A DNA stretch of 50,289 bases from Holosporales bacterium (lineage in GTDB: Bacteria > Pseudomonadota > Alphaproteobacteria > BNTO01). This document shows, piece by piece, positions 31,311 to 31,512 of the stretch; the first letter of the stretch is position 1; each line of letters starts with the position of its first letter. The notes beneath the pieces are model-generated. The model worked only from the letters and a program-made list of their open reading frames with translations. It was not told the DNA's origin and did no database searches. The stretch spans positions 1 to 50,289 of the forward strand of contig JAIRNK010000024.1 of the NCBI GenBank assembly GCA_031258095.1, read 5' to 3'. Made by a program: the position numbers and the translations under genes.

Positions 31311-31512
31311 AATATATTTCTATTGTTAATAAGTTTTAAAGTATTTGCAGGTTGACTTGTTAACGTTTTACTTGGTATTTTTGATATTGAGGTGTGCGGT
31401 GGCAAAACCGTTCGCGCGCTGACTTCAGCCCCAGAATGAGGGTGGGTGGGGGTTTGTGGATGGCACCCCGAGAGAAAAGTTAAAAATTCGTTAATGCCCG
31501 CATTTTAGACGA
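31311..31512 (+). repeat. Family-A dispersed repeat, copy A3 (complete left part plus core)
   Basis: Left part with GGTTGACTTGTTAACG...TATTTTTGAT, then core ATTGAGGTGTGCGGTGGCAAAACCG...GAGGGTGGGTGGGGGTTTGTGGATGG...TTCGTTAATGCCCGC. Confidence 0.85.
31352..31381 (+). promoter_or_regulatory. Promoter-like motif inside A3 (TTGACT-N18-TATTTT)
   Basis: Good -35 hexamer, 18-nt spacer and AT-rich -10-like hexamer. The motif position is conserved in A2, A4 and A5. No experimental support. Confidence 0.3.

Follow-up and report, generated by a model that had tools for sequence, protein, structure and literature searches.

The window, by which we mean the whole 50,289-nt contig JAIRNK010000024.1 of a Holosporales bacterium, has the content of an ordinary chromosome, with rho, tRNA-Arg, nth, ftsA, cysS, pgk, obg, a VgrG protein gene and a secretin gene among its genes. 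It also carries family A, a repeated unit of ~200 bp that an earlier note, made from the letters of the window alone, had described in five copies; all five were recovered at, or a few bases from, the coordinates reported there. The copy named in that finding is A3. A sixth copy, L2, lies outside the window on the 5.9-kb contig JAIRNW010000010.1 (locus L002) of the metagenome-assembled genome (MAG) Holosporales bacterium Cd354_bin5, and five of the six assembled copies fall within 42.5 kb. The copies and the features belonging to them are as follows, in window positions unless L002 is named, with bit scores from a covariance model.

1-124 (end approximate), plus strand: copy A1, transcribed portion only; invariant core 41-70, G-tract 56-68, GCCCGC plus U5 112-122; nhmmer E=3e-48, 158 bits
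~7970-8169, minus strand: copy A2; -35 TTGACT 8127-8122, 18-nt spacer, degenerate -10 TACGTT 8103-8098, ATTGAGG from 8093, U5 7975-7971; nhmmer E=2e-69, 143 bits
~31310-31508, plus strand: copy A3; -35 TTGACT 31352-31357, -10 TATTTT 31376-31381 with TG just before it, ATTGAGG from 31386, invariant core 31425-31454, G-tract 31440-31452, GCCCGC-AUUUU 31497-31506; nhmmer E=3e-69, 146 bits
31514-31529, with a T-rich tail to 31539, plus strand: terminator-like hairpin just 3' of A3
~42083-42287, minus strand: copy A4; -35 42242-42237, -10 42218-42213, ATTGAAG from 42208, U6 42090-42085; nhmmer E=6e-77, 153 bits
~42353-42555, minus strand: copy A5; -35 42512-42507, -10 42488-42483, ATTGAAG from 42478, U5 42359-42355; nhmmer E=3e-76, 155 bits
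42031-42300 and 42301-42570, minus strand: tandem duplication units of 270 nt each, bearing A4 and A5
42597-42677, plus strand: possible remnant, degenerate and inverted, of another copy's 3' third, directly upstream of A5; weak
L002 851-1067, minus strand: copy L2

The covariance model, R1, represents the transcribed part of the unit over 134 positions and aligns full-length to all six copies. A profile built from the copies returned nothing else convincing in the window beyond A1 to A5; the relic upstream of A5 (10 bits, E ~0.01 against the whole window) is weak and is not relied on. Pairwise identity is 96.9% between A4 and A5 in a MAFFT alignment and 77-88% for every other pair. Repeat detection places A4 and A5 within ungapped units that are 98% identical at a spacing of 270, with ~70 nt of non-family sequence duplicated along with each copy. 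These units are a recent local duplication, the sole visible mode of spread in the family. A1 is truncated by the assembly and not by biology: the contig opens on the initial base of its conserved ATTGAGG, which is also where the most conserved part of the unit starts, and a break of this sort is typical of a repeat.

The orientations assigned to the copies in the earlier note proved correct. A1 points toward a permease gene, A2 toward ftsX and A4/A5 toward cysS, whereas A3 is antisense to nth and runs toward the 3' end of that gene. The genes downstream of A1, A2 and A4/A5 begin ~300-600 nt from the putative start sites and are functionally unrelated to one another (a permease, an ftsX-like gene and cysS). 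Repeats resembling miniature inverted-repeat transposable elements (MITEs) lie between the copy and the downstream gene at A1 and A2, and A1 is additionally separated from its gene by an insertion sequence (IS) remnant. Neither A3 nor L2 is followed by a gene on the same strand.

Alignment of the copies reproduces the colinear layout described earlier and sharpens its limits. The full unit extends from about -78, relative to the predicted transcription start, to a U5 tract. Similarity starts abruptly at GAAAAATATTTT and stops at GCCCGC(T/A)TTTT-A(G). An AT-rich upstream block (about -78 to -39), which holds the palindrome AAAATATTTT, is followed by GGTTGACT, an 18-nt spacer, TATTTT (TACGTT in A2) and TGAT. 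From there the unit continues with ATTGAGGTG (ATTGAAGTG in A4/A5) through TCAGCCCCAGAATGAGGGTGGGTGGGGGTT to TTCGTTAATGC and a T5 run. This ~120-nt region 3' of the promoter contains a 30-nt invariant core with GGGTGGGTGGGGG. Among the four independent full copies (A2, A3, A4 and L2), identity is 25% in the 5' flank, 73% in the AT-rich upstream block, 100% (8/8) in the -35 element GGTTGACT, 59% in the spacer, 83% in the -10 box, 100% in the 4-nt discriminator, 85% in the transcribed part and 30% in the 3' flank. The spacer is invariant in length, with 6/18 of its positions invariant in sequence, as against 16/18 for the hexamers and discriminator taken together (Fisher p=0.0016). The longest invariant run is the 30-nt TCAGCCCCAGAATGAGGGTGGGTGGGGGTT, for which permutation gives p=2e-4 across the whole element and p=1e-3 when confined to the transcribed part. 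Outside its four full copies, the window has no instance of the motif GGTTGACTYGTTAA (4 observed vs 0.78 expected), and 1 of 100 shuffles gave as many. A promoter scan, which scores a match to the consensus only, retrieved TTGACT-18-TATTTT in A3, A4, A5 and L2. Taken as a whole, the conservation pattern fits selection on a promoter and its product, not the neutral decay of a repeat.

The census beyond the window points to a narrow distribution. An exact search for the invariant 21-mer CCCCAGAATGAGGGTGGGTGG in the GTDB species genomes (185,579 species, one genome per species), a census that depends on MAG assemblies, gave one true match, at L002, and one chance match (L001). The same exact 21-mer had 0 matches in JGI metagenomes and 0 in IMG/VR. 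Across ~115 kb of the nearest relatives, made up of 10 loci around homologues of CysS (58-85% identity) and Nth (68-76%), neither nhmmer nor model R1 found family A, and an Nth-guided metagenome scan for further loci returned nothing. Because these relatives and the database scans contained no further copies, family A is lineage-restricted and of low copy number. The earlier term "dispersed" needs qualifying, since the species genomes yielded no intact-core copy beyond L002. The term "undescribed" holds against Rfam 15, PLSDB plasmids and INPHARED phages. At gathering thresholds Rfam 15 retrieved two tRNAs only from the whole window and no family for the unit, and permissive Rfam scans around A3, A4/A5 and A2 gave sub-threshold chance matches only (E>=0.08). 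With blastn and 11-nt words, neither the 72,556 plasmids nor the 50,697 phages gave a match, and hence these collections, none of them a dedicated IS database, hold no sign that the unit is the terminus of a known IS or prophage, an identity that had been named as grounds for abandoning the proposal.

We tentatively read family A as a young, lineage-restricted family of sibling small-RNA (sRNA) genes spread by local duplication, an interpretation to which we would give slightly less than an even chance. A self-contained transcription unit is favoured because the hexamers are conserved around a spacer that is variable in sequence but fixed in length, because conservation ends sharply at about -78 and at the U5 tract, and because the transcribed part holds the invariant core. 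An sRNA gene is preferred over a leader since A3 and L2 lack a same-strand downstream gene, since the genes downstream of the other copies are functionally unrelated, and since those genes lie ~300-600 nt away with repeats (A1, A2) and the IS remnant (A1) in between. Of the two options offered in the earlier note, a portable promoter/5'-leader cassette or a multicopy sRNA gene, it is the second that fares better, and the "portable" element of the first that lacks support. The copies show two hallmarks of sibling sRNAs, namely a promoter of their own that is conserved as a promoter and a common 30-nt block of the kind expected of a seed.

Under the sRNA interpretation, a sigma-70-type promoter (TTGACT, 18 nt, TATTTT) would drive each unit, yielding a putative transcript of ~120-135 nt with its 5' end at or just before AUUGAGGUG. 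The RNAalifold consensus contains a 5' hairpin of 12 bp, a second hairpin, CCUCA[GCCCCAGAA]UGAGG, whose loop is C-rich, and a long-range helix that pairs GUGGGU of the G-tract with the GCCCGC just 5' of U5 and encloses two small hairpins. One-sided substitutions in predicted helices 1-3 retain pairing in 7/7 cases. In 5' to 3' order, the RNA would comprise the two hairpins, the G-rich tract GGGUGGGUGGGGG, a third hairpin, an A-rich single strand and GCCCGC plus U5, where conservation ends. By analogy with multicopy sRNAs, in which a conserved seed or C-rich loops bind ribosome-binding sites (RBSs), the product would be a discrete RNA acting in trans via its invariant core. Local duplication, and then rearrangement of the sort common in such genomes, may have given rise to the copies.

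Several families that we take to be of this kind are known, including Qrr1-5 of Vibrio, OmrA/B, PrrF1/2 and AbcR1/2. The closest parallel is LhrC1-5 of Listeria monocytogenes, with five near-identical copies of 111-114 nt, which establishes that the architecture proposed for family A exists (PMC4132741). The C-rich UCCC motifs of LhrC pair with a G-rich site near the start of the target (PMC4132741), and the C-rich loop GCCCCAG of family A could likewise pair with G-rich RBSs. Like these sibling sRNAs, family A consists of paralogous non-coding units of ~110-135 nt with their own promoters, present in tandem and dispersed copies that have a near-identical seed-like block, and its conserved region upstream of -35 suggests a common regulator. 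Unlike them, it has no sequence or Rfam relationship to a known sRNA, is confined to one lineage and resides in an uncultured intracellular-type alphaproteobacterium. Its invariant core is also richer in G than is usual among bacterial sRNAs, whereas LhrC is G-poor. A CsrA/RsmY-like sponge was considered and set aside: few GGA motifs were seen by eye.

A number of observations weigh against the sRNA interpretation. Transcription and function of family A are putative and deduced from sequence. A2, with its TACGTT, fails the promoter scan and, given its poor -10, may be decaying. Gene conversion among six close copies could have contributed to the invariant core. No base pair changed on both sides and no covariation measure exceeded that of shuffled alignments, in a set of six copies too similar for power. 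Folding energies are no better than those of shuffled sequence (z -0.96 to +0.64), and variable sites are not depleted in predicted stems (p=0.39). A scan-level intrinsic terminator follows only A3; the other copies have GCCCGC plus U5 at the conserved boundary together with weak 4-5-bp hairpins, and the terminator that we propose, a multibranch domain closed by pairing of the G-tract with GCCCGC and followed by U5, is unconventional as modelled. Duplex prediction gave no convincing target in the window. When the core was compared with the window's 39 translation-initiation regions, one outlier emerged (-43.4 kcal/mol, p ~0.03 vs shuffled cores), the best site being the C-rich/G-rich hairpin GCCCGCCCCCTGTTTTTGTGGGCGGG at 4960-5000 (+), in the 5' region of an uncharacterised 536-aa open reading frame (ORF) at 5023-6633; this outlier is probably compositional. 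Antisense matches to family A did not rise above chance.

Weak termination is also the reason that a promoter/5'-leader cassette keeps some weight, though we consider this explanation rather unlikely. The promoter would then mainly drive the next same-strand gene (the permease, the ftsX-like gene or cysS) and the transcribed part would be its leader. At 3 of 5 loci the next gene is on the same strand. A1, A2, A4 and A5 have no scan-level terminator between them and the downstream genes, and there is no other consensus-like promoter between A4 and cysS or in 1-620. The apparent lack of own promoters for the downstream genes was rejected as further evidence; most genes of the window lack a scan-level promoter. 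The features that favoured an sRNA gene all tell against a cassette: A3 faces the 3' end of nth, no gene follows L2, the genes beyond the other copies are unrelated in function, and hundreds of nucleotides, with MITE-like repeats at A1 and A2 and the IS remnant at A1, intervene before the gene starts.

In one variant the leader would perhaps be an attenuator, in which pairing of the G-tract with a C-rich segment upstream would allow read-through and pairing with the GCCCGC that precedes U5 would cause termination, and alternative pairings of the G-tract do exist in the predicted folds. The best ORF, a 13-codon mini-ORF encoding V(G/D)KTACALTSAPE, might take part. It lies behind GAGG at 6-nt spacing, is intact in 5/6 copies and has undergone 2 synonymous changes and 1 non-synonymous change. 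However, it is frameshifted in A3, its Shine-Dalgarno sequence is GAAG and not GAGG in A4/A5, and that sequence and the start codon are buried in the predicted 12-bp helix 1. The units also do not present a conserved leader ORF directly upstream of a regulated operon, as a leader peptide would. The trp, his and leu attenuators combine a promoter, a short ORF, alternative G-rich/C-rich pairings and a GC helix plus U-tract, and family A has a counterpart to each. In contrast to those systems, the family A ORF is not intact throughout, has no run of regulatory codons and has a sequestered RBS, and the units stand hundreds of nucleotides from unrelated genes or have no gene downstream. A leader that doubles as an sRNA when terminated prematurely would be compatible with these data, and the sRNA and leader/cassette readings are themselves mutually compatible.

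It is plainly unlikely, in our judgment, that family A is a selfish or neutral dispersed repeat that happens to carry a promoter, with a functionless transcript and a core conserved through youth or gene conversion; its origin could then be, for example, a fragment of the 5' region of an ancestral gene or a non-autonomous element mobilised in trans. The setting lends this account some support, as small repeats are abundant: a ~95-nt quasi-palindromic MITE-like element (TATACATATCCCATCTGAC...GTCAGTCGGGAGCC) occurs 13 times in the window, and two or more other repeat families are common to the window and L002. Family A is as lineage-specific as those repeats, the contig break falls inside A1, and A1, A2, A3 and L2 each have a MITE-like copy, sometimes an adjacent pair, 15-125 nt on their downstream side. 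Against it, the divergence among copies varies strongly along the unit in a promoter-shaped pattern that would not result from neutral decay; a single copy outside the contig turned up among the GTDB species genomes, unlike the density of the MITEs; and there is no plasmid or phage match. Nor do the copies have the ends of a mobile element, so the claim of portability is not borne out. An inverted-repeat search with a 6-nt seed over four copies found no arm pair common to their ends, and inspection of the flank alignment revealed no direct repeat, and hence no target-site duplication, across the boundaries of A2, A3, A4, A5 and L2. The single ISAs1 remnant is confined to the A1 locus.

Comparison with established repeat classes gives a similar picture. 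Correia/CREE elements of Neisseria, ERIC/IRU and RUP/BOX are bounded by terminal inverted repeats and number tens to hundreds of copies, and Correia elements generate TA target duplications. Family A resembles them in comprising short intergenic non-coding units on both strands with promoter-like hexamers that can face the genes beside them. It differs in having neither terminal inverted repeats nor target duplications and in a conservation centred on one oriented promoter and transcript. Where MITEs and Correia elements would show many copies of uniform divergence, six copies are known here and their divergence is highly non-uniform.

The MITE-like copies are located as follows.

Window: 149-243, 3388-3481, 3480-3573, 4684-4738, 7735-7828, 7853-7946, 9546-9633
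Window, continued: 10496-10589, 12235-12328, 13625-13715, 31568-31661, 31662-31753, 32614-32705
L002: 642-727

This element was not found in the ~115 kb of nearest relatives. The IS remnant at A1 is the C-terminal part of an ISAs1-family transposase (251-457, plus strand; NF033564, E=3e-6), situated past the A1/MITE pair and ahead of the aromatic amino-acid permease gene. We rejected an association of family A with ISAs1: the remnant occurs at A1 only and is the sole one in the window and the fetched loci. A third short repeat (window 35976-36070; L002 552-642 and 736-832) has 70-79% identity between the window and L002. Its two L002 copies are inverted and flank the MITE-like element there, which suggests nested insertions. 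Finally, the window (49514-49639) and L002 (224-349) have in common a stretch of 126 nt at 97% identity; it overlaps the 3' end of an uncharacterised ORF (49574-50179, minus strand) and represents either a further repeat or the duplicated end of a gene.

The G-tract raises a third and very doubtful alternative, that family A is a DNA-level G-quadruplex (G4)/R-loop module in which the promoter fires through the invariant GGGTGGGTGGGGG on the non-template strand, acting in cis on recombination, gene conversion, rearrangement or replication in a highly rearranged endosymbiont genome. Family A cores supply 5 of the 10 25-nt segments of the window with G4Hunter >=1.5. A2 reaches the window maximum (2.32), and the other four copies, at 1.88, exceed every non-family segment. 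The family also accounts for 5/6 of the three-tract G3 motifs of the window. The G-rich strand is the non-template (RNA-like) strand in 6/6 copies and always lies downstream of the promoter, the geometry required in Neisseria (PMC3547852). The tract falls within the 30-nt invariant run, and copies are located where synteny with relatives stops. However, the genomes are rearranged everywhere, so any association with breakpoints is putative. The canonical G4 is not the conserved feature either: four G3 tracts with short loops, as a three-tetrad G4 requires, occur in A2 alone (GGGTGGGTGGGGGTTGGGG, 8020-8038, minus strand), whereas the other five copies have three G3 tracts plus GG, a result that concerns canonical and not bulged or two-tetrad G4s. 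A2, the carrier of the four-tract motif, is also the copy whose -10 is weakest (TACGTT), and the 3' GGCGG arm is missing from it.

The comparison with the gonococcal pilE G4 is instructive in this regard. There, an RNA:DNA hybrid forms on the C-rich strand, transcription initiates inside the G4 sequence and the module acts in cis at pilE; two other predicted gonococcal G4s have putative promoters (PMC3547852). Family A parallels the pilE G4/gar system in its sigma-70 promoter, C-rich template strand, GGGTGGGT-type tract and strictly conserved G-tract. It departs from that system in that its tract sits ~55 nt past the putative start within a longer conserved RNA, in that 5/6 copies lack a fourth G3 tract and in that no silent-cassette recombination system is near. 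The further ~90 nt of conserved transcribed sequence would be superfluous for a pure G4 module. If this alternative were true, the units would represent a dispersed counterpart of the Neisseria pilE G4/gar system.

That the unit is a gene for a very small protein or type I toxin is scarcely credible: ORFs of 13 to 47 codons occur in individual copies, but, in keeping with the earlier note, none is intact in all of them, the frames being shifted by indels in A3 and cut by stops in A1 and A2, no peptide is toxin-like in hydrophobicity, and the translated family A ORF had no related protein among 5.8 billion sequences.

The nearest CysS and Nth homologues come from MAGs of uncultured "Holosporales bacterium" (best identity 85% and 76%, respectively), and the Logan runs SRR14710907 and SRR14710922 contain the organism or its relatives. 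Gene order is not conserved among the relatives, the regions upstream of cysS are unalignable, and no empty or orthologous site was obtained. The order cysS-BON-vgrG (window 37356-41779, minus strand), which ends in a type VI secretion system spike gene, is kept in the closest relative (L004 1203-5635; CysS 85%). This colinearity stops on the A4/A5 side, past which the upstream neighbour is prmC in that relative and a divergent gene for a MshL/PilQ-like secretin in the window. Elsewhere in the window, a short sigma-70-family ORF (32733-33347, minus strand; 204 aa) has regions 2 and 4 only and matches RpoH-type models in two separate pieces. A MITE-like copy adjoins this ORF, which may be a degraded rpoH.

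As a feature of the sequence, family A is real and statistically sound. In kind it is a lineage-specific newcomer to one of two well-known groups, multicopy sRNA genes or repeats that carry promoters. Even as a mere promoter-carrying repeat it would still matter for annotation, with outward transcription into cysS, ftsX and the permease gene, and as a unit that breaks assemblies. To our knowledge, the sRNAs of Holosporales and of other protist- and arthropod-associated intracellular alphaproteobacteria are essentially uncharted. If family A is an sRNA family, it would give metatranscriptome studies a specific candidate regulator to seek and may capture an early stage in the birth and amplification of sRNA genes, in which a tandem duplicate is still 97-98% identical.

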